A stretch of DNA of 64,000 bases from Candidatus Acidiferrales bacterium (GCA_035622155.1 DASPVW010000036.1:269890-333889), one strand, 5' to 3'. Positions 6,082 through 62,780 are shown, counted from the stretch's first letter. Program-made: numbers and translations. Notes: generated from the sequence alone by a model not told the origin.

Positions 6082-9000
6082 CTACGATTGTAGTTGCTTC
6101 AACACGTTTCTCATTGCTTCCAGGGGTCCGCCTTTTCCGCTCTTCCAGGTGAGCCAGAGCACGCCAGCCGGATCCAGGCGCAGGTCTCGGCGCTTTCCAA
6201 TCAGTTTCACTAAGTGATCGGGGCCGAGCGGGGTATCCTCGTGAAATTTGATGGCGATCTGGTCGCCGCGACGGTCTGCCGTGGCCACCGCCAGCCCCTC
6301 GGCCAACGCCTTCAGCACGGCATAATCGAGGAGATGGAAGACAGGAAGCGGCAGAGGGCCGAACCGGTCCTCCAGTTCTCGCCGGACCTCTTCTCGCTCG
6401 CTCTCCGAAGTAACGCTCGCAATGCGCTTGTAGATGCGCAGGCGTAGGTTTTCGTCGTCGATGTATTCGGGCGGAATGCGGAGGTCCTGTCCGAGATTGA
6501 GCGTGGCCCGGCGTTCGGGTGCAATTGCTTCGCCTTTCCGTTCCTTAACGGCTCGCTCCATCATCTGGCAATACATATCGAACCCTACCGCCTCAATGTG
6601 TCCATGCTGCTCGCGTCCGAGCAAATTGCCCGCTCCGCGCAATTCCAGATCGAGCGCCGCGATGCGGAAGCCTGCGCCGAGTTCGCTAAATTCCTTGAGA
6701 GCCGCGAGCCGCTGCCGAGCGATAGGCGTGAGCGCGCCCTCGGGGGGAACCAGCAGGTATGCGTATGCACGCTGATTCGAGCGGCCGACTCGCCCACGGA
6801 GTTGATACAGCTCGGAAAGCCCCATGCGATCGGCGCGATTGATCAGAATTGTGTTCGCGCGAGGGATATCCAGTCCATTCTCAATGATCGTGGTCGAGAC
6901 GAGAACTTCGGCCTGATTGCGCACGAACTTCAGCATGACTTTCTCGAGTTCGCTTTCGCGCATCTGGCCGTGACCAACCACGACACGCGCGCGAGGCACG
7001 AGCCGCTGCACCAGGTTGGCGAGCGACGCAATCGATTCGACGCGGTTGTGTACGAAGAATACCTGCCCATGTCGCAGCAACTCTTCTTCGATGGCCCGTT
7101 GGATCAGCGTCTCCTGAAAGGGAGCCACAGTGGTCTGAATCGCGAGCCGGTCCCGGGGCGGCGTCTCAATCACGCTCATATCGCGAAGCCCCACGAGCGA
7201 CATATGAAGGGTGCGGGGAATGGGGGTCGCGGACATGGTCAGAACGTCGACATTCTTCCGCATTTCTTTCAGGCGCTCTTTGTGAGCCACGCCGAACCGC
7301 TGCTCCTCATCCACAATCAGCAGACCCAGGTCGGAGAACCGTACGTCCTTGGAAAGCAGGCGATGGGTTCCGATGACGATGTCGAGTTTACCCGCTTCGA
7401 GTTCCTCAAGCGTTTTCTCCTGTTCCCTGTCGGTGCGAAACCGACTCAGCATCTCCATGCGCATCGGAAACGCAGCAAAGCGGCGCCGGAACGTCTCCAG
7501 ATGCTGGAACGCAAGCACTGTCGTCGGGGCCAGAACGGCGACCTGTTTTCCGTCGGCGACTGCCTTGAAGGCCGCGCGCATGGCCACCTCCGTCTTGCCG
7601 TAGCCGACGTCGCCGCACAGGAGGCGATCCATCGGCAATGACGACTCCATGTCACGCTTTACGTCGTCAATGGCGCGCTGCTGGTCGGGTGTTTCTTCGA
7701 ACTCGAAGGCGTCCTCGAACTCTCGTTGCCAGTTGGAATCTGCCGAGAAGGCGTGGCCGGGCGCGGTTTTGCGCTCCGCATACAGCGCGAGAAGCTGATC
7801 GGCCATGTCTCTGACCGATTTGCGTACGCGTGACTTACGCGCCTCCCAGAGATTGGCGCCCAACCGATCCAAGGCGGGTTCGGCGCCGCCGAGCGACTGA
7901 TACTTCTGGACGAGATCGAGCCGGGCCAAAGGGACGTACAGCCGTGCATCACCTGCGTAGCGTAGAAGCATGAACTCGCCCTGCGCGCCGTCTACGGCGA
8001 CCTGGCGCAGCCCCTCGAACTGCCCAATACCATGGTCCACATGCACGACAAACTCGCCAGGCTTGAGGTCCGATAAATCGCTGAAGAAGCTCGCAGTCTT
8101 CGGCCGCGAGCGCATCCGCTGGACCGGAAGAAACTCGAACAGATCAGCGTTGCCATACAAGGCGATACGGGCTTCGCCAAAGACGACGCCTTCAGGAAGC
8201 GGCGCCTTCACCAGTCCCATGGCTGGGACGCCGCCGCCGCTGGATTCTTCGGCCAGCCGCGTGACGGTGGCGTCCTTTTCGAGCTCTCCCAGCCGATACG
8301 GAATCTCATACTCGTGGCAGATATCGGCAAGCCGTTCGAGTTCTCCTGTGCTCGCCGCCGAAACCATCACCTGCTCGCCCGCGCCGATCCGCCCGCGCAC
8401 TTCCGCCATGAACGAGCTGATGTTGCCGCGATAGCGCGTCGTAGGCTGTGTCTGAAGGACAAGATGAGTGCTTTCGGTGCCGGCCATTGCCAGATGCTCG
8501 ATCGCCAGGCGTGGGAAGAGTTGAAGCGCGAGGGACCACTCCTCGTCACTTAGAATGTAGCGGGCCGGAGGTTCGGCGAGAGGATCGGCTGTTTTGTCGA
8601 AGGCTTCTTCCAGCTGCGTGCGGTAGGATTCGACCGCCTGAGCAAGTTCGGAGGGCTCGTCGAGCACGACCGCCGGCTCGATTGCGAGGTCAAATACGAT
8701 TCCCGGCCGCTCGGCGGACGCCATCTCACGAAATTCCCATCCGGGGTGGAAACCGACCGCCACATCGTCGGCGCGTCCCGATGATCCCCGCGCCGTCCCG
8801 TTCGCACTATGGAACACCTCAGTCAGAGGCAAGAGCAGGGCACGCTCGACCGGATTCGTTGAACGTTGTGTGGCGGGATCGAACGCACGAATGGATTCGA
8901 TCGTGTCGCCCAGCAGTTCGATGCGGACGGGCTGCAGCGCCTCCGGCGGAAAGGCGTCGATGATGCCACCGCGCACTGCGTATTGCCCTGGCATCTCACA

Positions 9001-9534
9001 GCTAACTTGCTTTTCGTAACCGGCGCGCTCGAGGAAACCTATCAAGTCTTCGTGTGCGATCGATTGGTCACGGGCGACTTCGCGCGCTAGATCGCGGTAG
9101 AACGATGCCTCGCGCATGCGCCAGACCATCGCCTCGACCGGCGCGATCAACAGATCAAGCTCGCCCGTCGCCAAGCGCCACAGTGCAACCGCGCGCGCTT
9201 CCGCGATTTCCCCGTGCGGGGAGCGGTTTTCGTACGGCAACACTTCGTAGGCGGGAAGGTGCGCAACCCGGCTTCCCGGCTTTGCTGTGATTGCGCGATA
9301 GCACCAGCGTACGGCCTCCACGAGCACTTCGGCGCGCTCATTCGAGCTGACAATCAGAATCGTAGGGCGGCCAATCGCGGCGAAAACCGTCGGCACGACC
9401 AGGGCCTTGGCCGGATCGGTGAGTCCCGCGATGTGAATTTCACCGACGTTGCGCCGAAGCCGGTCGTACGCCTCCTCCATGGCTGGAAGCCGCGCAATCT
9501 GCCCAAGCACCTCGGAGACGAAAGGAAGGATCAT
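6082..9534 (-). CDS. mfd: Transcription-repair coupling factor Mfd
   Basis: 1150 aa. Contains a CarD/RID-like domain ([16 protein letters not shown]), superfamily 2 helicase motifs ([18 protein letters not shown]) and a TRG region. Confidence 0.95.
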
Positions 9535-9790
9535 GCGGGCCCTGCCAGAAGACGCTGTTTCAGCAGCGGAATCAGCATGGCAGGGTGGGAAAGCGCCGTC
9601 CTACCGAGCCTGGGGATCGCACCCTTTGGGCACACCCCTCCCTGGGCGTTGTGTTTCCACGTGCCCCGGTAGAAAATCAGCCCAGGTTGCAAAACAAACG
9701 GTCCCAAACTTCTGTCCCTCAGTCGATCCCAGCGGGCTCGACCGAGCAGATGATTTTAGCACGTGCGCCCCGGCAACAGCCGAGGCCATC

Positions 9791-11293
9791 ATGAAGCGAT
9801 GGGAAATCGTACTGGCGATCACGGGCTCGCTCGTGGTTGGGTTGAGCGCGTTGGCCATCCGCCGCACCGAACGACCGCATCGGGATTTCGTCCTGATGGC
9901 CGGCGGCTGCCGTATGCCGGTGACGATTCTCGAACCGGACAAGACGACTCGCGACAGCGTGCTTCTGTTTCATGGGCTGTCCGCCGATCGCCGAATCATG
10001 CAGAGTCTTGGGAACTATCTGGCAGGACAAACAGGCTTGCGCGTGTATCTGTTCGATTTACCGGGGCATGGGGACAACACGGACACCTTTTCGTTTTCAC
10101 GCGCCGATCTCTGCGCTCGGCTTGCCGTCGAATCGCTGATTCGCTCCGGCGAGATCGACCCGAAGCGGACGATTCTCGTCGGGCACTCGCTCGGGGGCGC
10201 GATTGCCATCCGGGTGGCGGATCGCGAACCGGTGGCGGCGACGATCGCGCTTTCGCCCGCTCCCATGCCTTTGCCGCGGCGGATGCCGGCGAACCTGCTC
10301 GTCTTCAGCGCGCAGTACGATCTACCGATCCTCCAGCGGGCAGCACGAACGCTGGGCCAGGCGGCCGGGGGCGAGCGCGGAGAGCCCGATGATTTTCGCC
10401 AAGCGCGGGCCTTTCATCTCGAGATCACATCGTTCTCCGACCACACGAGCCTGCTTACCGATCCACGGGTGTTCCGGCAAGCCGCTGATTGGATCGACCA
10501 CGTGCTGGGCGGCTACCGAGCTCACAATCCTTCCTGCCCATATCAGGATCTTCCCTCCTTCATCGGTTTGCTGGGGATTCTGTTGCTCTTCCCGTTTGCC
10601 GTAGCGGTGGCCGCGAAGGTCGCGGGTCCGCTCACTACCGACCAAGCGGCGGCGAGCCCTGCTGCCCTTGCCCTGGCTGAAGGGGCGGCGTGCTCCTTGG
10701 CGAGTGTCCTGATTTTGGCAGTCTGCGTTCCTCTGTCGTTGCTGCACCTGTACACGGGAGATTATCTCGCCTCCCTGCTTTTGATCGCAGGCGTTCTGCT
10801 TTTGGCGCTCAACGGAAAATCCGCGAAGCAGGCACTGCGTGTCGATCTCCGCGTCTTGTTTGCCGCTGCGCTCCTCGGATTCGCCGTTCTGCTTAGCCTT
10901 GGGGCTTGGCTCGACTGGCAGATCGCGGACTTGTGGCTGAACCTACCGCGCTGGCTCCGGTTTGTCGGGCTCCTCCCCGTGGTGTCGATTTTCTGTTTTG
11001 CCGAGGAAGTCGTGCTGGGGCCGGTCGGCAAGGGCCGGCTGCGCGCCTGGCGATTTGCCCTTTTCCTTGCTCTTCGGGCCGAACTTTGGCTGGCTTGTTT
11101 GTTCTCCTACTACGCACTGGCCAGTGGGCAGGTGCTCATTCTGATCCTGGGAGTTTCTCTGGCGCTATTTTCGCTGTTGCAGAGGTTAGCGACCGATGCG
11201 CTACGCCTGCGCACGGGCTCGGCGACAGCGGCCGCCGTCTTTGGTGCTATACTCGGCGCCTGGTTTATAGCAGCAATATTTCCACTGACCTGA
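9791..11293 (+). CDS. alpha/beta-hydrolase fused to a C-terminal polytopic membrane domain
   Basis: Start re-picked at ATG 9791 (MKRWEIVLAITGSLVV..., N-terminal TM). Hydrolase core with nucleophile elbow GHSLGG, followed by about 6 predicted TM helices. Confidence 0.6.
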   Translation: MKRWEIVLAITGSLVVGLSALAIRRTERPHRDFVLMAGGCRMPVTILEPDKTTRDSVLLFHGLSADRRIMQSLGNYLAGQTGLRVYLFDLPGHGDNTDTFSFSRADLCARLAVESLIRSGEIDPKRTILVGHSLGGAIAIRVADREPVAATIALSPAPMPLPRRMPANLLVFSAQYDLPILQRAARTLGQAAGGERGEPDDFRQARAFHLEITSFSDHTSLLTDPRVFRQAADWIDHVLGGYRAHNPSCPYQDLPSFIGLLGILLLFPFAVAVAAKVAGPLTTDQAAASPAALALAEGAACSLASVLILAVCVPLSLLHLYTGDYLASLLLIAGVLLLALNGKSAKQALRVDLRVLFAAALLGFAVLLSLGAWLDWQIADLWLNLPRWLRFVGLLPVVSIFCFAEEVVLGPVGKGRLRAWRFALFLALRAELWLACLFSYYALASGQVLILILGVSLALFSLLQRLATDALRLRTGSATAAAVFGAILGAWFIAAIFPLT

Positions 11294-11334
11294 TCCGGCG
11301 GAACCGGACAAGAAAAGAACACCGTAGGTTGGGG

Positions 11335-12525
11335 ATGAAAGAGATTGCCATCGTTGGGGCAGGCCCTGCCGGTTCGCGATGCGGCGAGCGGCTGGCCAAC
11401 CATGGATTCCGCGTCACCATTTTCGACGAACGTCTGGCCTGGGAAAAACCCTGTGGCGGCGGCTTGACGCACAAGGCGATTCAGGCGTACCCCTTCCTGC
11501 TCGACGGCTGCCATCCCAAGAGGGTCGTCCGGACAGCGGAGCTGATTTCCAGCAGCGGGCATCGCGCGCGCTTCGACATGAGCCAGCCCATCGTCATCTA
11601 TGCGCGGAAGGTTTTGAACGGCCTGCTGCTGGACCGCGCCGTTGCTGCGGGCTGCCGTACGATTTGCGCTCGCGTAACCAGCGTTGATACCCATGGCCCG
11701 CGCGTGCACTTGAGGGCCGGGGGCGAAGCATGTCAATCTGATTTCGTTGTTGTGGCAGCGGGCGCGCGGAACCGCTTGCTGCCCGAGACGACGGCGCTCA
11801 GTGCGCATGATTTGGAACTGACGCTCGGTTACTTCGTGCCCACCGAAGAGGATATCATCAAGGTAAAGTTTCTAAAGGAATTCGAAGGCTATTTGTGGTC
11901 GTTTCCGCGCGCCGATCATCTTTCCGTCGGCATCTGCGCCAAAATGGGCCAAGGACCGACGCTCGAGTTGCGCCAACACCTCGATCGGTTCGTCACCGAA
12001 GAAAACATACCGATGACCGGCGCGCGATTTTACAGCCACGTGTTGCCTTCGCCCCAGGCGCAGACGATTCGCGCGCGGCGCATCGCTGGAAAAAACTGGG
12101 CGATGGCAGGGGACGCAGCGGCCTGCGTCGATCCCATCACCGGAGAGGGGTTGTATTACGCGCTGCGCTCGGGCGATCTGCTGGCGCAAGCGTTGATCGA
12201 GGGCCAACTGCATTCTTACAGCGAACGTCTCCGCGCGGCGTTTTCCGCCGATCTGGAATTCGCAGCAGGCATCGCACGCAAACTGTTCCGGGGCACTTTT
12301 TTGGGCGGCGCGATCACCACGCGCATGGTGCAACTACTGAACTGCTCTCCAACGTTCCGCGACCTCATTCGCGATGTCTTCAGCGGCTCACAGGATTACC
12401 GCAGCCTTAAGAGAAGGCTTTTTAGCCAGGTCGGCACCACCATGCTGGAATTCATGCGTAGCTTTTTCGGCAGCGGCGTGATTCCTAGCCCCTCCTGCTG
12501 GAAACGCAGCAATCCCCTGTCATGA
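11335..12525 (+). CDS. FAD-dependent oxidoreductase, geranylgeranyl-reductase family
   Basis: Start re-picked at ATG 11335. Has the N-terminal Rossmann motif IAIVGAGPAGS and the family-typical EKPCGGG motif. Confidence 0.75.
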   Translation: MKEIAIVGAGPAGSRCGERLANHGFRVTIFDERLAWEKPCGGGLTHKAIQAYPFLLDGCHPKRVVRTAELISSSGHRARFDMSQPIVIYARKVLNGLLLDRAVAAGCRTICARVTSVDTHGPRVHLRAGGEACQSDFVVVAAGARNRLLPETTALSAHDLELTLGYFVPTEEDIIKVKFLKEFEGYLWSFPRADHLSVGICAKMGQGPTLELRQHLDRFVTEENIPMTGARFYSHVLPSPQAQTIRARRIAGKNWAMAGDAAACVDPITGEGLYYALRSGDLLAQALIEGQLHSYSERLRAAFSADLEFAAGIARKLFRGTFLGGAITTRMVQLLNCSPTFRDLIRDVFSGSQDYRSLKRRLFSQVGTTMLEFMRSFFGSGVIPSPSCWKRSNPLS

Positions 12526-12995
12526 AAAGACGCAAAGCTTCTCACCGAAGGCGCGGAGCCAATCGCGCGTCGGGACAAACAAAGCGACCGAGCACCCCGC
12601 TTCCGGACCCGCGCCCGCGGATTGGAGCGGAAGCTACCGTGGAGCGCGTCGTCGAACATCAATATACGATTCAGGCGTTTGACCCGAACTTGCCGGCGGT
12701 CTTCTCGACTCCGGCCATGATCGGATTGATGGAACACGCCAGCGCGCTGGCCGTCCGTCCCGACCTGCCTTCCGGGGTTATCACGGTCGGCACGCGGGTC
12801 GAGGTGGACCACCTAAAGGCGGTATCGCCCGGCGCAACCGTGCAGGCTCACGCCCGCTTCGTAAAGTACAAAGGCCGTTTTCTGGTCTTCGAGGTAGAGG
12901 CGCGCTCTGGGGAGCACGTCATTGGGCGCGGCCGCGTTTTTCGAGCGATGGTCGATCCCGAAAAACACGGAGCGAAGGCGCAGGCTCACGTGTAG
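12522..12995 (+). CDS. Hotdog-fold thioesterase (FlK-like thioesterase superfamily)
   Basis: VFSTPAMIGLMEHAS...VGTRVEVDHLKAV...FLVFEVEA pattern. Its ATG overlaps the upstream TGA (ATGA at 12522-12525). The very basic 40-aa N-terminus may or may not be translated. Confidence 0.7.
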   Translation: MKRRKASHRRRGANRASGQTKRPSTPLPDPRPRIGAEATVERVVEHQYTIQAFDPNLPAVFSTPAMIGLMEHASALAVRPDLPSGVITVGTRVEVDHLKAVSPGATVQAHARFVKYKGRFLVFEVEARSGEHVIGRGRVFRAMVDPEKHGAKAQAHV

Positions 12996-13017
12996 CAGTG
13001 GTGGTCGCAGAGGCACC

Positions 13018-51835: not shown

Positions 51836-52831
51836 TCACCATCCAATTGGAGATTTGTAGGGCAGCACGAGCTGCACTCCTTCGATCTGGCGAATTGTGC
51901 CGCCCTCAATTTTGAAAAACTCCGCCACCTCAACACTGAATGGCCTGAGCGCCGACGCCGGCATGGGAATTCTGCCGACACCGGGAACGTCTGCTTCCTT
52001 CACAGTTCCCGGGTGATTGAACATGAAAAAGCCGAAAACAATGCCCATTTTTTCGTCCACCATCACGAATCGTCGTGGATCAACCGACTGGATATACGCC
52101 CAAATTTTCGTGTTCATATTCTCGCGGCAGCCGAGCGCCGCAGGATTGAAGGTTCCGTTCGCCCAACCCTCGTTGTAGGAAGGATTGTTCGTGTCCTGCA
52201 TGCCATCCAGGATGCGATTGCATTTTTCATCGAACGGAACGATGTCACCCGAAAGATGCACGATGCCCTCGAAGTATTGATTGGCATCATGAAGCATCGT
52301 GGCGCGCGGGGTGCGCTCGGCAGCTGTGACGGGCTCAAGCCAGACGCGATTGGGCTGGCCGAACTGTTCCAATTTTTGGGCGGGCTCTGCGCCGCGCCGG
52401 ACGACCGTCTCCACCTCGGTGATTGTTCGCTCCACCACCTTTAGTCGCACGACCAGGATCGCAGGCGTACCATTTTCGCGGATCGTGCATTCGCACCCAA
52501 CTTGGCCCGTTGACGGGTCAGCGAAATAGATTTTGTAGGTGCCCAGGCTGCTGATCGTGCCCCACAAGGCGTCGGGAAGCTTCAGCGGTATGGTGTTTTC
52601 CGTGAACTTGACCGCAGCGGCTAGGGGGAGCCGGCTTGGATCATGAGCGACCAGAGCGCTCAGATACTGATCGAGCAGGCCGCGGAGACACGCCTCATCG
52701 CATTTTGCCGAGGAGGCCGTTTGTTCCTGGCCGCCAGGACGGGCCGCTCGACTCCCACGATGAGGGTTGGCAAACGACAATCCTGCCACGAGCCCTATGG
52801 CCAAGATCTTGCGGCTTGTTCGCATGTTCAC
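51836..52831 (-). CDS. Secreted hypothetical protein
   Basis: 331 aa with an N-terminal signal-like segment (MNMRTSRKILAIGLVAGLSFA) and coding-like composition. Family not recognised. Confidence 0.5.
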   Translation of the reverse strand: MNMRTSRKILAIGLVAGLSFANPHRGSRAARPGGQEQTASSAKCDEACLRGLLDQYLSALVAHDPSRLPLAAAVKFTENTIPLKLPDALWGTISSLGTYKIYFADPSTGQVGCECTIRENGTPAILVVRLKVVERTITEVETVVRRGAEPAQKLEQFGQPNRVWLEPVTAAERTPRATMLHDANQYFEGIVHLSGDIVPFDEKCNRILDGMQDTNNPSYNEGWANGTFNPAALGCRENMNTKIWAYIQSVDPRRFVMVDEKMGIVFGFFMFNHPGTVKEADVPGVGRIPMPASALRPFSVEVAEFFKIEGGTIRQIEGVQLVLPYKSPIGW

Positions 52832-56360: not shown

Positions 56361-57941
56361 CTACGCTCCCGGGTTGCGCATCCGCTTGGGCCAGATCCCG
56401 GACTTGCCTGGCGAGAGGATTCCGTTGGGGTCGACAGCGTCCTTGATCGTTTCGTGGAGGCGTCGCAAGGCGTGATCGTTGTAGGAATAGACGTCTGACA
56501 CCGTGTCCATCATCGTCGTGTGCGTGCGATATTCGCCCCACCCGTGCGCGGCGGCCACTTCGACCAGGCGTTTAAAAACTTCGCGCGTCTTTCTATTTTT
56601 TCCCACGTCGTGCTCGATGGGAAAACCGAAAAGAAGAACGAATGCGCGCGGGAAAAACGCCCAAGGAAGAACAAAAAACTGGTTTCGCGGTTCCACGCCG
56701 AGCTCTGCGTAAGCCTTCCCAAACACTTGGAGGACCTCGAAGACCGCTTCTCCGGTCATCGGAATGATGGGCGAGAAGTCCATGTGCCCTTGAGCTCCCA
56801 CGATCCGTCCGAAGACGGAGAGATTCGGGATGCCCAGCGCAACACGCGGTGCGTCGTCGGTTTCTGTGAGCTCCAGCGGAAACCTGTAGTGCCTGCCGTC
56901 TTGGAAGGTAGCGCCGGGAATCGCGGAAAACTTCTCCTTCGTATACTCCCACTGCGCGTCGATGACCTTCTCGGGACCCCAGAAATGCAGCTCGGCGCCC
57001 CAGTAAGGAAGATTCTTCTCCTGGGCGAGTTTTTCCAATTCCGCCACCGACGGCCCGCCCGGCATGTCGAGGACTCCGCCGCCCTGCGACATGCGGTAAT
57101 CGAGCAGAGGGCTGTCGAGCAGCATCGTTCCTCGCACAATGTCGGAATTCATCAAATAGGAGAGCGTCTGGACGAAAGGAATCAGATCATCGTGTTTGGG
57201 CACCATCACGGTGCCATCGCGATACGCCTCCGGCGACGGCATCAGCCACAGACCTATCTTAGTGACGACGCCAAAATTGGATTGTGAAAAAATCCCATCA
57301 AGATACGGGCCGAAGCCATACCGATATTGCTGCCAGGTTTGGGAGCCTGGCAGCGCACCCATACCGGTGCGCACCACCTCGCCGTTAGCGAGCACCACCT
57401 CCATCCCGCACACGGATTGAAAGTGATCGCGCATCGGCGTCCGCCCGCCGCCACGCTCGAGCGAGTTTCCCATCGGGCTGCCCCAGCCAGGATCGGGTGG
57501 ATCGATCCAAACTTGTAGCTTGTTCTCCTGAATGTAGCGATAGAGATCAAAGTAGCTGACGCCCGGCTCGACCAGCGCATAGTGGTTCTTGTCACTGACC
57601 TCGATGATTTTGTTCATGCGCTTCAGGTCTAAGACAACGCTTCCCGATAAAACCGGCGCCGAACCACCGTAGGCGAGATTCTTGCCGGTAGAGATCGTCC
57701 AGAGAGGGATCTTAAAGTGATTGGCAATCCTGACAACTGCCTGCACCTGTTCGAGGTTCTCAGGCGCGACGGCGGCAGAAGCGACGCGTTCACCCGCTTC
57801 ATGCCAGTAAGGGGAGTACGAATCGCGATAGAGATCGACGTCTTCCTCAGAGGTAAACACCCACTGCTTGCCGACGACGGCGTCAAATTGCGCCAGGGCC
57901 GCTGCAAAGTCGTCCGAGCTTACACCGGGAGGAACTCGCAT
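56361..57941 (-). CDS. VAO/PCMH-family flavoprotein (4-alkylphenol dehydrogenase/oxidase-like), paralog F1
   Basis: Start re-picked at ATG 57941 (MRVPPGV...), giving 526 aa. FAD_binding_4-type region (PLWTISTGKNLAYGGSAP), GHMDFSPI and a C-terminal GWGEYRTH...AVDPNGILSPGK very like vanillyl-alcohol oxidase / eugenol oxidase / PchF. Confidence 0.85.
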   Translation of the reverse strand: MRVPPGVSSDDFAAALAQFDAVVGKQWVFTSEEDVDLYRDSYSPYWHEAGERVASAAVAPENLEQVQAVVRIANHFKIPLWTISTGKNLAYGGSAPVLSGSVVLDLKRMNKIIEVSDKNHYALVEPGVSYFDLYRYIQENKLQVWIDPPDPGWGSPMGNSLERGGGRTPMRDHFQSVCGMEVVLANGEVVRTGMGALPGSQTWQQYRYGFGPYLDGIFSQSNFGVVTKIGLWLMPSPEAYRDGTVMVPKHDDLIPFVQTLSYLMNSDIVRGTMLLDSPLLDYRMSQGGGVLDMPGGPSVAELEKLAQEKNLPYWGAELHFWGPEKVIDAQWEYTKEKFSAIPGATFQDGRHYRFPLELTETDDAPRVALGIPNLSVFGRIVGAQGHMDFSPIIPMTGEAVFEVLQVFGKAYAELGVEPRNQFFVLPWAFFPRAFVLLFGFPIEHDVGKNRKTREVFKRLVEVAAAHGWGEYRTHTTMMDTVSDVYSYNDHALRRLHETIKDAVDPNGILSPGKSGIWPKRMRNPGA

Positions 57942-57945
57942 AGAG

Positions 57946-58290
57946 CTAGGGCTTGTTGTTCCGGGTGAGATAGGCCGCAATTGCGTCGAGATCGGCGTCG
58001 CTGATCTCCGTCTTGCGAAATATAGGCATGAACAGGACACCCTGACGCACAAAGGTCTTGATCATGGGGGCGGTAAGGTCGGTGCGCTCCTCCAGCACGG
58101 CGGGTTTTTGACCGCGCGCCGCCAGCGAATCGGTCCCAGGCTTTCCGGTACCGGTGCCGTGGCAGGGGAAGCACCACTTGTCGTAGACCTTGTGCCCCCG
58201 TTCGATCTGAGCCTGGTCGGGTGCGGCAGGGGTTGAGGCTGCCACCGCGATACCTAGGGCGATAAAAAAAACGGCCTTGGTGCTTTTCAT
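57946..58290 (-). CDS. Mono-haem cytochrome c (PchC-like subunit), Ca
   Basis: 114 aa with a signal peptide, a single CFPCH haem motif and a distal Met candidate in MPIFRKTE. The ATG overlaps the F2 stop (ATGA at 58287-58290). Confidence 0.85.
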   Translation of the reverse strand: MKSTKAVFFIALGIAVAASTPAAPDQAQIERGHKVYDKWCFPCHGTGTGKPGTDSLAARGQKPAVLEERTDLTAPMIKTFVRQGVLFMPIFRKTEISDADLDAIAAYLTRNNKP

Positions 58291-59882
58291 CCTTGTGCCT
58301 TCCGCATCCGTTTGGGCCAGACCCCGCAGCGACCCGGCGAAAGGATTCCGTTCGGATCGACCGCATCCTTGATCGTTCCGTGAAACCGCCGCAGGGAATG
58401 GTCATTGTAGGAATAGACGTCGGAAACCGTGTCCATAAAGGCTGTGTGCGTGCGATATTCGCCCCAACCGTGTTCGGCGGCGGCCTTTACTAAGCCTTTG
58501 AACACTTCCCGGCTTCTCTGGTTTTTCTCGATATCATGGTAGATCGGGAAACCGCACAAGATTACGAATGATCGCGGGAAGAACGACGACGGGAATACAA
58601 AGATCTGATTGATGGCGGGCACACCCATGTCGTGATAGGCCTGCCCAAACACCCTTTGCGCCTCGAACACTGCCTCCCCCGTCATGGGAATGATCGGCGA
58701 AAACCACATGTGGCCTTCACTGCGACCCATCATTCCGAAGATCGTAAGGCTCGGTATGCCGAACTGCCGCTTGGGCAGTTTGTCCACATAGCTGGGATCG
58801 ACCGGAAGCTTATACGTTTCGCCTTCTACAAACAGGGCCCCGGGGATCGCCGCGTACTTTTCCTTTGCGTACTCCCATTGGGCCTCAACCACTTTGGGCG
58901 GCCCGTAGAAATTCATTTCGCAGGTCCAGTAGGCCAGATTCTGATCGCGCCCAATCTTCTCCAGCTCCTCGATCGAAGGCCCCCCTGGCGTCATGACCAG
59001 CGCCGAGCCCCCGCCGCTAGCGCTTCGCGCAGCGCGGGACATCAGTAGCGGGCTTCCGATGGTCGTGGTGCCCTGCACGAGGTTCGAGTTCATCAAGTAA
59101 TTCAGCGTTTCGACCAGCGGCACAAGATCATCGTGCCTAGGGACCTGGACGGTTCCAGACTTGAAGCCTTCCGGCTCCGGCAATAACCAGAAACCCATCT
59201 TGGTCACAACACCAAAGTTAGATTGCGAAAAAATCCCATCAAGATACGGGCCGAAGCCGTACCGATATTGCTGCCAAGTCTGGGAGCCTGGCAGCGCACC
59301 CATGCCCGTGCGTATGATTTCGCCGTTGGCCAGAACGACTTCCATTCCGCAGTGCGCGTCGAAGTGGTCCCGCAGCGGCGTGTAACCGCCACCGCGATCG
59401 AGTGCATTGCCGATCAAGCTCCCCCACCCAGGATCGGGAACGTCAATCCAGACTTTCAGGCCCCGATCCTGAATGTAGCGGTACAGATCGAAATAGCTAA
59501 CGCCGGGTTCGACCAGTGCGTAGTGGTTTTTGTCATTCACCTCGAGGATGCGGTCCATGCGCTTTAAATCCAGCACCACACTGCCGCCCAGCAGTGGCGC
59601 CGAGCCGCCGTAGCCGAGGTTCTTGCCGGTAGAGATTGTCCACAGAGGAATTCTGTAGGCATTGGCAATTTTGACAGCCGCTTGTACCTGCTCCACGCGA
59701 TCGGGAGCAATGGCAGCGGACGGAATCGGTTCTAGATCTTCGTGCCAAAAGGGTGAATAGGAGTCGCGGTACAGATTCACATCGTCGTCCGACGTGAACA
59801 CCCAATCGTTACCAAGCGCCTGCCGCCACTGCGTGATGGCGTCGGAAAAATCCTGTGGTGTTACGCCCGGTGGAACTCTCAT
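58287..59882 (-). CDS. VAO/PCMH-family flavoprotein, paralog F2
   Basis: Start re-picked at ATG 59882 (MRVPPGV...), giving 531 aa. By eye about 70% identical to F1. Same motifs (GHMWFSPI, GWGEYRTH). Confidence 0.85.
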   Translation of the reverse strand: MRVPPGVTPQDFSDAITQWRQALGNDWVFTSDDDVNLYRDSYSPFWHEDLEPIPSAAIAPDRVEQVQAAVKIANAYRIPLWTISTGKNLGYGGSAPLLGGSVVLDLKRMDRILEVNDKNHYALVEPGVSYFDLYRYIQDRGLKVWIDVPDPGWGSLIGNALDRGGGYTPLRDHFDAHCGMEVVLANGEIIRTGMGALPGSQTWQQYRYGFGPYLDGIFSQSNFGVVTKMGFWLLPEPEGFKSGTVQVPRHDDLVPLVETLNYLMNSNLVQGTTTIGSPLLMSRAARSASGGGSALVMTPGGPSIEELEKIGRDQNLAYWTCEMNFYGPPKVVEAQWEYAKEKYAAIPGALFVEGETYKLPVDPSYVDKLPKRQFGIPSLTIFGMMGRSEGHMWFSPIIPMTGEAVFEAQRVFGQAYHDMGVPAINQIFVFPSSFFPRSFVILCGFPIYHDIEKNQRSREVFKGLVKAAAEHGWGEYRTHTAFMDTVSDVYSYNDHSLRRFHGTIKDAVDPNGILSPGRCGVWPKRMRKAQG

Positions 59883-59899
59883 CCCCAGCTCCTGTCCCT

Positions 59900-60295
59900 T
59901 TACGGCTTGTTGTTGCGCGTCAGGTACAGAGCGATCGCATCCAATTCGGCATCGCTGATTTCTGTCTTGCGAAAAAACGGCATGATGGAGATGCCATTGC
60001 GAACGTAGGTCTTGACCAGCTCCGGCGTCAGATCGGTGCGCTGGTCCAGAAGCGCCGGCTCCGAGCCCTTGTATTTCGCCTCCAGTGCCATGGTGCCGGG
60101 TCGGCCGACCCCTGCGCCGTGGCACGCCGAACAGTACTTTTGATATTCCACGTACCCACGCGGCTGACCCTGGCCCGAGACGGTCGTGGTGGTCCACGAC
60201 GACGGGATTCTCTGCCCCTGGTCTTGCGCCGCGCCGCTAGAGGTCCCGAGGATCGCAGCAAGTGCGATCACCCCAAACATGCCCACGTGGTTCAT
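59900..60295 (-). CDS. Mono-haem cytochrome c (PchC-like subunit), Cb
   Basis: Start re-picked at ATG 60295 (MNHVGMFGVIALAAILG, signal peptide), giving 131 aa. Single CSACH and MPFFRKTE. The ATG overlaps the F3 stop (ATGA at 60292-60295). Confidence 0.8.
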   Translation of the reverse strand: MNHVGMFGVIALAAILGTSSGAAQDQGQRIPSSWTTTTVSGQGQPRGYVEYQKYCSACHGAGVGRPGTMALEAKYKGSEPALLDQRTDLTPELVKTYVRNGISIMPFFRKTEISDAELDAIALYLTRNNKP

Positions 60296-61959
60296 GCCTG
60301 ACTCTTTCTGAGTTGCTTGGGCCAGATGCCGTAGCGGCCCGCGGAAAGGATTCCGTTTGGATCGACCGCGTCCTTCAGAGTTTCGTGAAACCGCAAAAGC
60401 GAATGATTGTTGTAGGAATAGGTGTTCATGATGTCGCTCTGATACGCCGGTGCGGTGCGATATTCGCCCCAGCCATGTTCCGCCGCGATCTGGACCAGCT
60501 GGCGAAAGGCCGCGCGATTCTTCTGATTCGTTTCTTTGTCGCGGGTTACCGGGAACGCAAAAATGAAAATGAAGGCTCGCTCCCAGTAACAGGAAGGAAG
60601 GCTGAAGGCCAGCGCTGGAATCCCATACTTCTTCGCGGCTTGGCTGAACACACGGTTCGCTTCGAAGATGGCCTCGCCGGTCCGCGGAATGATTGGCGAG
60701 AACCACATATGGCCGTTGGTGGGATCGGGATTGGTCCGTGATCGGGCGCCGATCGAGAACATCGCCAGGCTCGGTATGCCGAATTGCGGCTTGTGAACCT
60801 TTTCGCGCTCCTCAGCAGTCAGCGGGAGCTTGTAGGACTCATTTTCGACACACTTCGTACCCGGAATCGCGGAGAATTTCTCCTTTGCGAATTCCCAGTT
60901 GGCCTCGTTCGCTTTGGGAGCACCATAGAAGCTCAGCTTGCAGCTCCAGTAACTGATGCCCTGCTTCAGTGCGTATTGCTCGAGTTCGGTCGAATAGCCC
61001 CCCTCCGATTTGGCGAGCAGCGCCGCCAGCTCGGGCTGGGGAGGTGGCGGACCATCCCCGCGGTTCCAAGCGTCTATCTCCGAAATCATCGGAATCTGCA
61101 GCAGGGGACTGCCCAGGTCCGGCATGCCGTTGGTGACGCGTGTGTTCTCCAGATAGTTCAGAATCTTGACCAAAGGAATCAGGTCCGCATGCCTGGGCAC
61201 GTAGATGGTTCCGGCGAGATAGGCATCCGGTTCCGGCATCAGCCAGAAACCCATCTTGGTTACCACTCCGAAGTTGGACTGAGAAAAAATGCCATCCACC
61301 CAAGGACCAAAGCCAGTCTTGTAATTCTGCCAAGTCCTAGCTCCGGGCATCGCGCCCATGCCCGTGCGGATGATGTCGCCGTTCGCCAGCACTACTTCCA
61401 TTCCGCAATGCGAATCAAAATGATTGCGAAACTGGGCCATCAAGTATCCGCCGCCTCGATCGAGCGCGTTGCCGACCGGACTGCCCCAGCCAGGATCCGG
61501 GACATCGATCCAGAGCTTCAGTCCCTTCTCCTGAATGTAGCGATACAGGTCGAAATAGCTGACACCGGGCTCAACCAGAGCGTAGGCATTCTCTTCGTTC
61601 ACTTCGATCACGCGATTCATTCTCTTCAGATCGAGAACCACGCTCCCGGAAAGGACCGGCGCGGATCCACCGTATCCGAGATTTTTGCCCGTCGACACTG
61701 GGTAGATCGGAATATTGTATTCGTTGGCGATGCGGACGACTTTCTGGACCTGCTCGACGTCATCGGGAGCAACCGCAGCGGAGGCAAAAAGCTCGTCCGG
61801 TTCCCCTAGAAAAGGGGAGTAGGGATCTCGATAAAGAGCGACATCCTCATCCGCGGTGAAAACCCATGGCTTGCCCACGACTTCTTCGAATTTGTTGATC
61901 GCTTTTGCGAAATCACTCGGACTCACGCCAGGGGGAACTTTCATTCCGAGACTCCCCAA
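60292..61959 (-). CDS. VAO/PCMH-family flavoprotein, paralog F3 (most divergent)
   Basis: 555 aa from ATG 61959, or 550 aa from ATG 61944 (MKVPPGV..., matching F1/F2). Motifs GHMWFSPI and GWGEYRTA. Confidence 0.85.
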   Translation of the reverse strand: MGSLGMKVPPGVSPSDFAKAINKFEEVVGKPWVFTADEDVALYRDPYSPFLGEPDELFASAAVAPDDVEQVQKVVRIANEYNIPIYPVSTGKNLGYGGSAPVLSGSVVLDLKRMNRVIEVNEENAYALVEPGVSYFDLYRYIQEKGLKLWIDVPDPGWGSPVGNALDRGGGYLMAQFRNHFDSHCGMEVVLANGDIIRTGMGAMPGARTWQNYKTGFGPWVDGIFSQSNFGVVTKMGFWLMPEPDAYLAGTIYVPRHADLIPLVKILNYLENTRVTNGMPDLGSPLLQIPMISEIDAWNRGDGPPPPQPELAALLAKSEGGYSTELEQYALKQGISYWSCKLSFYGAPKANEANWEFAKEKFSAIPGTKCVENESYKLPLTAEEREKVHKPQFGIPSLAMFSIGARSRTNPDPTNGHMWFSPIIPRTGEAIFEANRVFSQAAKKYGIPALAFSLPSCYWERAFIFIFAFPVTRDKETNQKNRAAFRQLVQIAAEHGWGEYRTAPAYQSDIMNTYSYNNHSLLRFHETLKDAVDPNGILSAGRYGIWPKQLRKSQA

Positions 61960-61975
61960 CGAACAAACGGCTCCA

Positions 61976-62578
61976 TCAGACCTGCAGGGGCGCGATCAAC
62001 CAGGAGATGAGATGTTCCGGATCATCGGCGTGTCGGACCGTAGGCCCAATCACATTGGCTAACGACAGCGGTGTTCGGCTCGCCGGGCACCGAGTCAGCA
62101 AGCCTGCCATTTCGAACGACCAGCTTGTCTCGTGGCTCAGTCCTACCGCCTGCCTCAACATGGGAGTGGGCCCAGAGAGCGCATGCTCGATTAAGCCATC
62201 GGCCAGATAACGATGATCGGCTCGGAAAACGACGCGCATGCGCTGATCCCAAGCCAGCCTCTCCAGGCAGAAGATGGCTCCGTGCTCAGTCATTCCGGCA
62301 ATGGCTGCCGGCCCCTGTTTCCAGCGTGCATACAGATCGTGGTACCACAATTCTGTCATGTCTCCCCGAATCGGGTGAACGGAAACGCCCAGTCTCTCGG
62401 CCTCCTCTGCAAAAGCACGACTCGAGCTGAACCGCTGATCGAAAACCATCTTGTACAGGGGTGTCGCCGAGGGTTCGCCGTCGGCGAGGGAAGTGGCCGG
62501 TGAAAGAGAGGTGTGCGAGGAAATCGGCAAAGCCAGCGCCGCCACTCCCATCTGAAGAAATTCTCTCCTACTCGCCAT
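61976..62578 (-). CDS. Tat-signal protein of unknown function, first gene of the flavocytochrome operon
   Basis: Start re-picked at ATG 62578 (MASRREFLQMGVAALALPISS...SLA|DG). It has a twin-arginine SRREFL motif and no CxxCH or other cofactor motif. It stops 16 nt before the F3 start. Confidence 0.6.
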   Translation of the reverse strand: MASRREFLQMGVAALALPISSHTSLSPATSLADGEPSATPLYKMVFDQRFSSSRAFAEEAERLGVSVHPIRGDMTELWYHDLYARWKQGPAAIAGMTEHGAIFCLERLAWDQRMRVVFRADHRYLADGLIEHALSGPTPMLRQAVGLSHETSWSFEMAGLLTRCPASRTPLSLANVIGPTVRHADDPEHLISWLIAPLQV

Positions 62579-62780
62579 CTTGTCGTCTCCTGCGTTTGCT
62601 AGGGATCTGGGCGGGGCGAAGTTTGCACGCGAGAACCCCCCTGTCAAGGGCTTTTTGCGTCGAACCAGCAGGCTGCGGCCCGACAGGCTCCGATGAGTCC
62701 GAGTTCTTCAACGTAAGGTATAGTGGCTGCGCACAACTTCCGGCCCCACGCCGGCATCCGATGAAGCGTTCCGGAGACGA

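Follow-up and report, generated by a model that had tools for sequence, protein, structure and literature searches.

The flavoprotein subunits of vanillyl-alcohol oxidase/p-cresol methylhydroxylase (VAO/PCMH) flavocytochromes lack a signal peptide yet function in the periplasm, a combination known for PchF-type subunits since the 1980s–90s. Their export is unexplained; Sec-signal export is hard to reconcile with these subunits because the flavoprotein is folded and FAD-bearing, and a conserved twin-arginine neighbour would be a simple hypothesis. Here, a 64,000-nucleotide stretch of DNA from Candidatus Acidiferrales bacterium (the window) was analyzed, in which positions 56,361–62,578 carry a six-gene array encoding a protein with a twin-arginine translocation (Tat) signal (T), three paralogous flavoproteins (F1–F3), and two cytochromes c (Ca and Cb). 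On balance, the array probably encodes a periplasmic, O2-independent 4-alkylphenol dehydrogenase battery in which T is a Tat hitchhiking escort for the flavoproteins. What is new here is the diverged multi-paralogue array under one Tat-signal protein; the enzyme class itself is already known.

The described flavocytochromes PchCF (Pseudomonas putida, PDB 1DII/1DIQ) and EhyAB combine a flavoprotein with a small monohaem cytochrome c, with a signal on the cytochrome and none on the flavoprotein; PCMH is periplasmic, and 4-alkylphenols are hydroxylated with water and without an O2 requirement. The array resembles them in composition and in the placement of signals, and is predicted to resemble them in the reaction. 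The phenolate-binding Tyr/Tyr/Arg triad of the family consists of Tyr108, Tyr503, and Arg504 in VAO, and of Tyr91 with a C-terminal Tyr-Arg in VAD and EUGO. The catalytic types differ in their flavin contacts: oxidases have a His-linked FAD and Asp/Glu-Leu at the N5 contact, PCMH/EUGH dehydrogenases have a Tyr-linked FAD at a non-homologous site and a small residue followed by Pro/Ile at N5, and the VAD clade has a His-linked FAD with Asp-Pro at N5 (Guerriere et al. 2025, PMC7617285, Table 1). Replacement of Pro with Leu at the N5 site of VAD yields an oxidase, such that one residue sets oxidase versus dehydrogenase behaviour (PMC7617285).

The six minus-strand open reading frames of the array, proposed in an earlier reading made from the sequence alone (the sequence-only reading), were all confirmed in place apart from the start of F3. 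The features are as follows.

61976–62578, minus strand: T, 200 aa; twin-arginine signal protein, head gene of the array
62552–62572, minus strand: twin-arginine motif SRREFLQ (residues 3–9 of T); a hydrophobic h-region and possibly an SLA/D cleavage site come next
60292–61944, minus strand: F3, 550 aa; predicted VAO/PCMH 4-phenol dehydrogenase of the F3-type clade, without signal peptide
61483–61500, 60694–60714, and 60454–60468, minus strand: F3 motifs PDPGWG, GHMWFSP, and GEYRT, respectively
59900–60295, minus strand: Cb, 131 aa; predicted c-type cytochrome (monohaem, Sec-type signal) whose start overlaps the F3 stop (ATGA)
60119–60133 and 59972–59983, minus strand: Cb motifs CSACH and MPFF, respectively
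58287–59882, minus strand: F2, 531 aa; predicted VAO/PCMH 4-phenol dehydrogenase of the F2-type clade, without signal peptide
59421–59438 and 58695–58715, minus strand: F2 motifs PDPGWG and GHMWFSP, respectively
57946–58290, minus strand: Ca, 114 aa; predicted c-type cytochrome (monohaem, Sec-type signal) whose start overlaps the F2 stop (ATGA)
58159–58173 and 58018–58029, minus strand: Ca motifs CFPCH and MPIF, respectively
56361–57941, minus strand: F1, 526 aa; predicted VAO/PCMH 4-phenol dehydrogenase of the F1-type clade
57480–57497 and 56769–56789, minus strand: F1 motifs PDPGWG and GHMDFSP, respectively

The junctions measure +31 nt (T/F3), −4 nt (F3/Cb, ATGA), +17 nt (Cb/F2), −4 nt (F2/Ca, ATGA), and +4 nt (Ca/F1). 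These distances and overlaps bear out the single, tightly packed, co-directional array of the sequence-only reading, whose motifs M[RK]VPPGV, GWGEYRT, and AVDPNGIL, one CxxCH per cytochrome, and common cytochrome C-terminus were all found again. Its alternative F3 start, TTG at 61959 with a 16-nt gap behind T, was given up for ATG at 61944, which has GGGGAG 7 nt upstream; homologues all begin M[KR]xPPGV, and F3 is also 550 aa in an independent gene call on the source contig. This start leaves 31 nt between T and F3. A 391-kb public metagenome contig (ENA ERZ27251333, k141_1304643) encodes a protein identical to T, and an independent gene caller placed the same six genes on it. The same gene order recurs in other genomes, and spacing and conservation together suggest that the six genes form one operon.

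All three flavoproteins matched FAD_binding_4 in Pfam (E = 7.6e-33 for F3, 1.1e-29 for F2, and 4.1e-30 for F1), and F1 also matched FAD-oxidase_C (E = 2e-6). The top PDB match of each was 9H40, deposited as 'p-cresol methylhydroxylase' (9h40_A; F3, 771 bits, E = 6.6e-231; F2, 633 bits, E = 5e-189; F1, 581 bits, E = 1.8e-173). VAD came second (8S7P and relatives; 451–481 bits, E ~1e-134 to 1e-143, with 5e-143 for F2), followed at lower scores by 4-allyl syringol oxidase, EUGO, VAO, and P. putida PchF. The alignments were near full-length, from residue 3 to ~523–547, and the N-termini of F1–F3 aligned at residue 2 (9H40 chain) and residue 5 (VAD); no signal peptide was found in any of the three. 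The FAD_binding_4 and end-to-end PDB matches are well beyond chance and agree with the earlier placement of F1–F3 in the VAO/PCMH family.

F1–F3 each read PDPGWG and GHM[DW]FSP, plus [AG]YGGS and GEYRT. Because PDPGWG and GHM[DW]FSP supply Asp-Pro and His, F1–F3 are, by signature, full-length VAO/PCMH 4-phenol oxidoreductases of the VAD dehydrogenase type: as read from the sequence, Pro151 follows Asp150, and His387, the site of the 8-alpha-N3-histidyl-FAD link, is in place (VAD numbering). The phenolate Tyr/Tyr/Arg triad is likewise present in F1–F3. A conservation count on related arrays, covering 160 full-length flavoproteins, found Tyr91, Asp150, Pro151, His387, and the C-terminal Arg in 160/160 and the C-terminal Tyr in 159/160. 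PCMH-type sequences aligned alongside (from pNL2 and Sulfuricurvum) read GGSMWFAP and CPAPSAIA. Orthology to PchF was excluded: PchF has a Tyr384-linked (8-alpha-O-tyrosyl) FAD and Ala-Pro at N5, whereas F1–F3 carry His and Asp-Pro and should therefore not be filed as PchF orthologues. The homology of PchF to F1–F3 is also more distant (E = 1e-87 to 1e-100). The likening of F1–F3 to the flavocytochromes PchCF and EhyAB in the sequence-only reading is accordingly kept for the VAO/PCMH 4-phenol group and replaced, as to type, by VAD.

The same residues bear on the view that F1–F3 are cytoplasmic oxidases like VAO or EUGO, with the cytochromes and T as mere neighbours and no physical flavocytochrome complexes. 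All three carry the His and Asp typical of oxidases and lack signal peptides, and metagenome studies usually annotate such genes as vanillyl-alcohol oxidase (AA4). Oxidases, though, carry Leu, Ile, or Val at the N5 site where all 160 array flavoproteins have Pro, flavoprotein–cytochrome pairs overlap and have co-diversified as described below, and three actinobacterial oxidase-type loci (Asp-Leu, Asp-Ile, and Asp-Val) have neither a cytochrome nor a protein with a twin-arginine (RR) motif, which makes cytoplasmic oxidases highly improbable here.

The dehydrogenase type is best compared with VAD (Marinicaulis flavus, PDB 8S7N–8S7W) and 9H40, which show full-length homology to F1–F3. VAD has in common with them His387, Asp150, Pro151, the Tyr/Tyr/Arg phenolate triad, the lack of a signal peptide and, as predicted for F1–F3, dependence on an endogenous cytochrome c. 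In comparison with both, the array has three diverged paralogues, two of them with translationally coupled cytochromes, and a Tat-signal protein at its head; the VAD paper does not treat gene context, cytochrome partner, or export (PMC7617285).

Within the C-terminal half, three stretches show the lowest identity among F1–F3, and we tentatively read this as divergence of the cap (substrate) domain. A tandem array of paralogues could also consist of redundant recent duplicates, or be an assembly artefact, with no functional differentiation, and a short F1/F2 stretch suggests copy exchange. That account is scarcely credible: mutual identity is just 58–68% with the C-terminal half most diverged, the three clades occur in 33–54 genomes each with a clade-specific cytochrome partnership, and a public assembly contains the contig with the same gene calls, T and its upstream neighbour gene appearing again in a second dataset. 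Recent redundant duplication was rejected on divergence and clade distribution. The short stretch lies at 57267–57389 in F1 and 59208–59330 in F2 (~120 nt, residues ~185–225), where the DNA is 93% identical and third codon positions are 80% identical, compared with a background third-position identity of 30–45%; it may be a short gene-conversion tract.

Both cytochromes matched Cytochrome_CBB3 in Pfam (E = 3.7e-15 for Cb and 1e-14 for Ca), and each has a hydrophobic N-terminal signal as read from the sequence, one CxxCH, and an MP[IF]F Met region. They share 55% identity, and Ca weakly matches PchC (1dii_C, E = 0.0028). Cytochromes of related arrays have a single CxxCH in 118/118 cases and MPxF in 110/118. 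Ca and Cb are predicted Sec-exported class I monohaem c-type cytochromes; their earlier description as signal-bearing monohaem proteins is upheld by the Cytochrome_CBB3 match, the CxxCH, and the Met region.

To which flavoprotein each cytochrome belongs was surveyed over 80 loci with a T homologue from species-representative genomes, in which T, flavoprotein (F), and cytochrome (C) genes were mapped. A start codon overlapping the upstream stop was available at 92/105 F-to-C junctions, compared with 2/71 C-to-F, 4/61 T-to-F, and 9/45 F-to-F junctions. Average-linkage clustering separated the flavoproteins into three deep clades: a cytochrome gene comes next in 57 of the 68 F3-type sequences, in 40 of the 57 F2-type sequences, and in 0 of the 33 F1-type sequences, the last occurring once per locus. 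F3-type genes pair with Cb-type cytochromes (n = 49) and F2-type genes with Ca-type cytochromes (n = 40). In rearranged arrays, such as T-F3-Cb-F1-F2-Ca, the F–C pairs shift as blocks and F1 shifts alone. Because of the F-to-C overlaps, the clade pairing, and the block-wise movement, F3–Cb and F2–Ca are assigned as the cognate, translationally coupled units, with F1 as a flavoprotein without its own cytochrome. At the gene level, the coupling of F3 and F2 to an electron-acceptor cytochrome is strong (ATGA), and F1-type genes have no cytochrome of their own. The opposite order, cytochrome then flavoprotein, had been offered by the sequence-only reading (Cb with F2, Ca with F1, and F3 with T); it is contradicted by the F-to-C versus C-to-F overlap counts and fails on the F1 clade as well.

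This arrangement differs from the described pairs in two respects. The pch genes run cytochrome, (pchX), flavoprotein, whereas in the array the flavoprotein is followed by the cytochrome with overlapping codons, and PchCF and EhyAB are one pair each, whereas the window holds an array of pairs. The PCMH of Geobacter metallireducens (PcmI/PcmJ/PcmG) is similar in having more than one flavoprotein isoform with a cytochrome c, and its composition is reportedly alpha-alpha'-beta2 (work of Johannes et al. from 2008). By analogy, it offers a model for joint action of paralogous flavoproteins, and perhaps for the pairing of F1 with another flavoprotein. It differs in being of the Tyr-linked PCMH type and in being membrane-associated through a bc1-like complex.

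T:F:C gene counts were taken over 81 arrays, the window included. The ratio was 1:1:1 in 19 arrays, 1:3:2 (the form in the window) in 14, 1:4:2 in 8, 1:4:3 in 5, 1:5:x in 3, and at least 1:6:2 in 6, the last being a lower bound as the array reaches the end of the fetched flank. In Acidoferrales genomes, 1:3:2 is the commonest expanded form (14/81 arrays). T is single copy in every array, leads all of them except locus L074, where a cytochrome gene comes first, and stands directly upstream of a flavoprotein gene at 61 junctions. The simple T-F-C triad spans Acidobacteriota as well as Alpha- and Gammaproteobacteria: it was found in Bryobacterales, Steroidobacteraceae, and an alphaproteobacterial metagenome-assembled genome (MAG), on plasmids of Roseomonas mucosa and Novosphingobium pentaromativorans, and on three further metagenome contigs. 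T also adjoins a flavoprotein gene without a nearby cytochrome in Caballeronia (hhalign probability 98.7%) and in Sphingobium fuliginis and pNL1 (hmmsearch E = 7e-15 and 6e-12, respectively). Judged by this gene content, Acidobacteriota and Proteobacteria have T-F-C as their basal module, which Acidoferrales have expanded to at least six flavoproteins. No description of such an array was found in the literature searched. The sequence-only reading, which took the 3:2 Tat-headed array to be undescribed, holds in that no paper was found, but rarity does not follow: the array appears as a common, undescribed Acidoferrales architecture that arose by expansion of a widespread T-F-C module.

Two observations concern variant loci. 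A short form of T (~139–148 aa), with the N-terminal core and the C-terminal LISWVIAP strand only, is found in L072–L081 (Bryobacterales) and L090, where it also heads T-F-C triads. Just upstream of T, locus L058 encodes a 527-aa FAD_binding_4 protein (8333–9916) whose own RR signal reads NRREFLK, and the flavoprotein gene after T (10471–12133) is in frameshifted pieces, either a pseudogene or a long-read assembly error.

T is the only array protein with a twin-arginine signal. It begins MASRREFLQ, and the hydrophobic stretch MGVAALALPI follows SRREFLQ, which by motif reading agrees with the Tat consensus S/T-R-R-x-F-L-K plus hydrophobic stretch. S3, R4, R5, E6, F7, L8, and Q9 are invariant in 20 homologues, and R4 and R5 in 56 diverse members; the head gene was rightly recognized from the start as encoding a Tat-signal protein with a genuine twin-arginine motif. 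T had no match in Pfam or NCBIfam at E < 0.01 and none among PDB sequences. Its AlphaFold (AF2) model has pLDDT 84–97 in most 10-residue blocks from residue 41, with one at 75, and pTM 0.75; the fold starts with a beta-alpha-beta-alpha-beta-alpha-beta core, behind which come further strands and helices. A Foldseek search of this model against PDB returned nothing significant (best E = 0.011, TM 0.23). The 620 close homologues, mostly from Candidatus Acidoferrales, are all annotated as hypothetical, and a hidden Markov model (HMM) scan of 1.84 billion representatives (E ≤ 1e-3) gave 1,680 clusters at 50% identity. Conserved residues are Asp47, Asp73, Thr75, Thr97, Arg115, His122, and His132.

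RR-signal proteins are also present in other PCMH-type loci. In 11/11 proteobacterial plasmid loci inspected, a flavoprotein without signal peptide is adjacent to a 124–218-aa protein with an N-terminal RR motif; the N5 residue of the flavoprotein is Pro in 8, Ser in 2, and Ala in 1, with oxidase-type Leu/Ile/Val in 0. Only some of these RR proteins are demonstrable T homologues, and the others have no significant similarity after signal trimming; those of PCMH-type loci in particular are not demonstrably homologous to T. In the PCMH-type locus of Sulfuricurvum kujiense pSULKU01 (L084, 3389–3967), one of the 11 and with a Tyr-linked signature, the order is cytochrome, RR protein, flavoprotein. 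The pch operon presumably runs pchC-pchX-pchF, with pchX an unassigned gene between the other two, and going by this gene order the Sulfuricurvum RR protein would sit at a pchX-like position. A PCMH-type locus with a Tyr-linked signature on N. aromaticivorans pNL2 (L083, 3216–3590) likewise has a small RR-signal protein. The Sulfuricurvum and pNL2 proteins form narrow unnamed families of 34 and 14 clusters, respectively.

The Sulfuricurvum RR protein is not demonstrably a T homologue, its BLASTP match being the signal alone and its hhalign probability being 37% with signals and 0.9% after trimming. Its AF2 model is poor (pLDDT 49.5), and the N-terminal beta-alpha-beta-alpha-beta-alpha-beta order and spacing are like those of the T core, a secondary-structure likeness that is suggestive only. 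No similarity to T was found for the RR proteins of pNL2, Massilia, Rhizobium, and S. yanoikuyae. On plasmid pF1 of Sphingobium yanoikuyae SJTF8 (L099, 4919–5488), also among the 11 loci, a 189-aa RR-motif 'hypothetical protein' is encoded right after flavoprotein and cytochrome c genes similar to bpfA and bpfB, and the cluster looks like the bisphenol-F (bpf) cluster of strain DN12. A 2025 preprint on BpfAB of DN12 reports BpfA, PchF, and PcmI as lacking signals and PCMH as periplasmic, and credits export to the Sec signal of the cytochrome. RR proteins of PCMH-type loci were not mentioned in the literature searched, and the DN12 preprint does not discuss the bpf one.

A described export route with similar components is that of the FAD-glucose, fructose, and gluconate dehydrogenases, which resemble the array in having a twin-arginine small subunit, a signal-less flavoprotein, and a cytochrome c subunit. 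The gamma subunit of the FAD-glucose dehydrogenase from Burkholderia cepacia is a Tat hitchhiker that carries the flavoprotein (PMC6719666). These enzymes differ in having GMC flavoproteins, whereas those of the array are of the VAO/PCMH family. T differs from hitchhiker small subunits in having no Gluconate_2-dh3 Pfam match and no Foldseek match to any PDB chain, and in the array one putative escort gene precedes several cargo genes. By analogy, T may work like the FAD-glucose dehydrogenase gamma subunit without being a member of the FAD-GDH gamma/Gluconate_2-dh3 family.

Covalent-FAD flavoproteins fold in the cytoplasm, and a partner without a signal can pass through Tat when bound to a subunit that has one; the flavoproteins would therefore need Tat to reach periplasmic cytochromes. 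In the proposed mechanism, the cytochromes are exported via Sec, and the signal-less flavoproteins would fold with FAD in the cytoplasm. T most likely binds F1–F3 and takes them through the Tat translocon as hitchhiking cargo, as the genetic association suggests, and may stay bound as a small subunit. Each of F1–F3 is predicted to hold FAD covalently via His and would oxidize a 4-alkylphenol or 4-hydroxybenzyl alcohol, the presumed substrates, to a quinone-methide intermediate that takes up water. The two electrons would pass to a small monohaem cytochrome c rather than to O2, because proline blocks the N5 side of the flavin, and then to the respiratory chain. F3 would transfer electrons to Cb and F2 to Ca, while F1 presumably borrows a cytochrome or pairs with another flavoprotein. 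The sequence-only reading had proposed a periplasmic battery for lignin-derived 4-alkylphenols; a battery for para-substituted phenols, O2-independent and of VAD type, remains the most reasonable reading, and the periplasm and the substrates are what we infer in it.

Several points weigh against this mechanism. The periplasmic location of the flavoproteins is deduced from their cytochrome partners and by analogy from Pseudomonas PCMH. A single T would need to escort three different flavoproteins here and six or more elsewhere, and neither the Pfam nor the Foldseek PDB search linked T to known hitchhiker subunits by sequence or fold. Its conserved Asp, His, and Arg residues could have a ligand-binding or catalytic role of their own. 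The promoter/terminator scan of the array gave counts at chance level, and no aldehyde dehydrogenase or ring-cleavage genes were found near it. Lastly, ~16/80 T loci, 13 of them from Gammaproteobacteria MAGs, have no VAO/PCMH gene within 10 kb, and T is therefore not strictly tied to the flavoprotein. These flavoprotein-less loci are with or without a cytochrome; those of the Gammaproteobacteria MAGs, where T often comes with a cytochrome c, are L050–L054, L059–L061, L063, L065, L067, L069, and L070 (around 10001–13000). Neighbours of T in the Gammaproteobacteria ones are a pyrroloquinoline quinone (PQQ) dehydrogenase carrying a cytochrome c domain at its N-terminus, a gentisate-dioxygenase-like cupin, an FAD_binding_3 monooxygenase, a protein of metallo-beta-lactamase fold, and a PBP2_Ca3427-like protein without a signal.

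Such loci raise the question of whether T is instead a periplasmic accessory with a job of its own, in ligand binding, as a redox or scaffold subunit with the cytochrome, or as a sensor, using Tat because its folding, or its binding of something, takes place in the cytoplasm, with the flavoproteins exported otherwise. In ~10 of the Gammaproteobacteria loci, T occurs with a cytochrome c and no flavoprotein gene, beside the PQQ dehydrogenase with its cytochrome c domain. Several conserved T residues lie at the C-terminal ends of parallel strands in the (beta-alpha)3 core, where Rossmann-like folds bind ligands, and the weak top Foldseek matches are periplasmic-binding-protein and LysR effector domains; these matches, however, are not significant (E ≥ 0.011, TM ~0.23), and T has no cofactor motif. 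T is also found with a flavoprotein and no cytochrome, and an accessory role leaves the export of signal-less, FAD-loaded flavoproteins unexplained. Unrelated-looking RR proteins hold the same place in other PCMH loci, and a shared export role therefore fits better than a shared binding site. We consider an accessory role rather unlikely, and prefer T as the escort of the flavoproteins. A broader proposal is put forward tentatively, as something short of an even chance: the T family and the analogous RR proteins of PCMH-type loci could be the missing export factor, a dedicated Tat escort for periplasmic VAO/PCMH flavocytochromes that would bind the flavoproteins once folded and loaded with FAD, with one escort per diverged cargo set in Acidoferrales (three here and at least six elsewhere).

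The flanks of the array hold housekeeping or unrelated genes, namely a resistance-nodulation-division (RND) efflux pump upstream and waaA, lpxK, and a PEMT-family gene downstream. A TTGACA hexamer lies ~60 nt upstream of the T start (62625–62645, minus strand), and AGGAG lies 8 nt before the ATG; these may be the array promoter and ribosome-binding site, although the consensus scan called no promoter there. A DUF8021 (PF26061) protein with a signal peptide is encoded ~3.5 kb past F1 in the window (51836–52831, minus strand), and a DUF8021 gene directly follows the T-F-C triad of an unrelated metagenome contig (L092, 7668–8669); its presence near both arrays may be coincidence or a loose functional link.

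If this broader proposal is true, an escort of this kind would explain how PchF-type subunits cross the membrane. T defines a sizeable unannotated protein family (the ~1,680 clusters). The three deep paralogue clades, in arrays of up to six or more flavoproteins, would be a natural 4-phenol dehydrogenase library with matched cytochromes for biocatalysis. Metagenome surveys label homologous genes 'vanillyl-alcohol oxidase', implying a need for O2, whereas the signature residues, together with the coupled cytochromes, point to dehydrogenases whose added oxygen comes from water and whose electrons pass to the respiratory chain. If this is true, the numerous peat and soil Acidobacteria genes labelled 'vanillyl-alcohol oxidase (AA4)' would encode O2-independent respiratory dehydrogenases, a reading that bears on phenolic removal in low-oxygen peat and soil.

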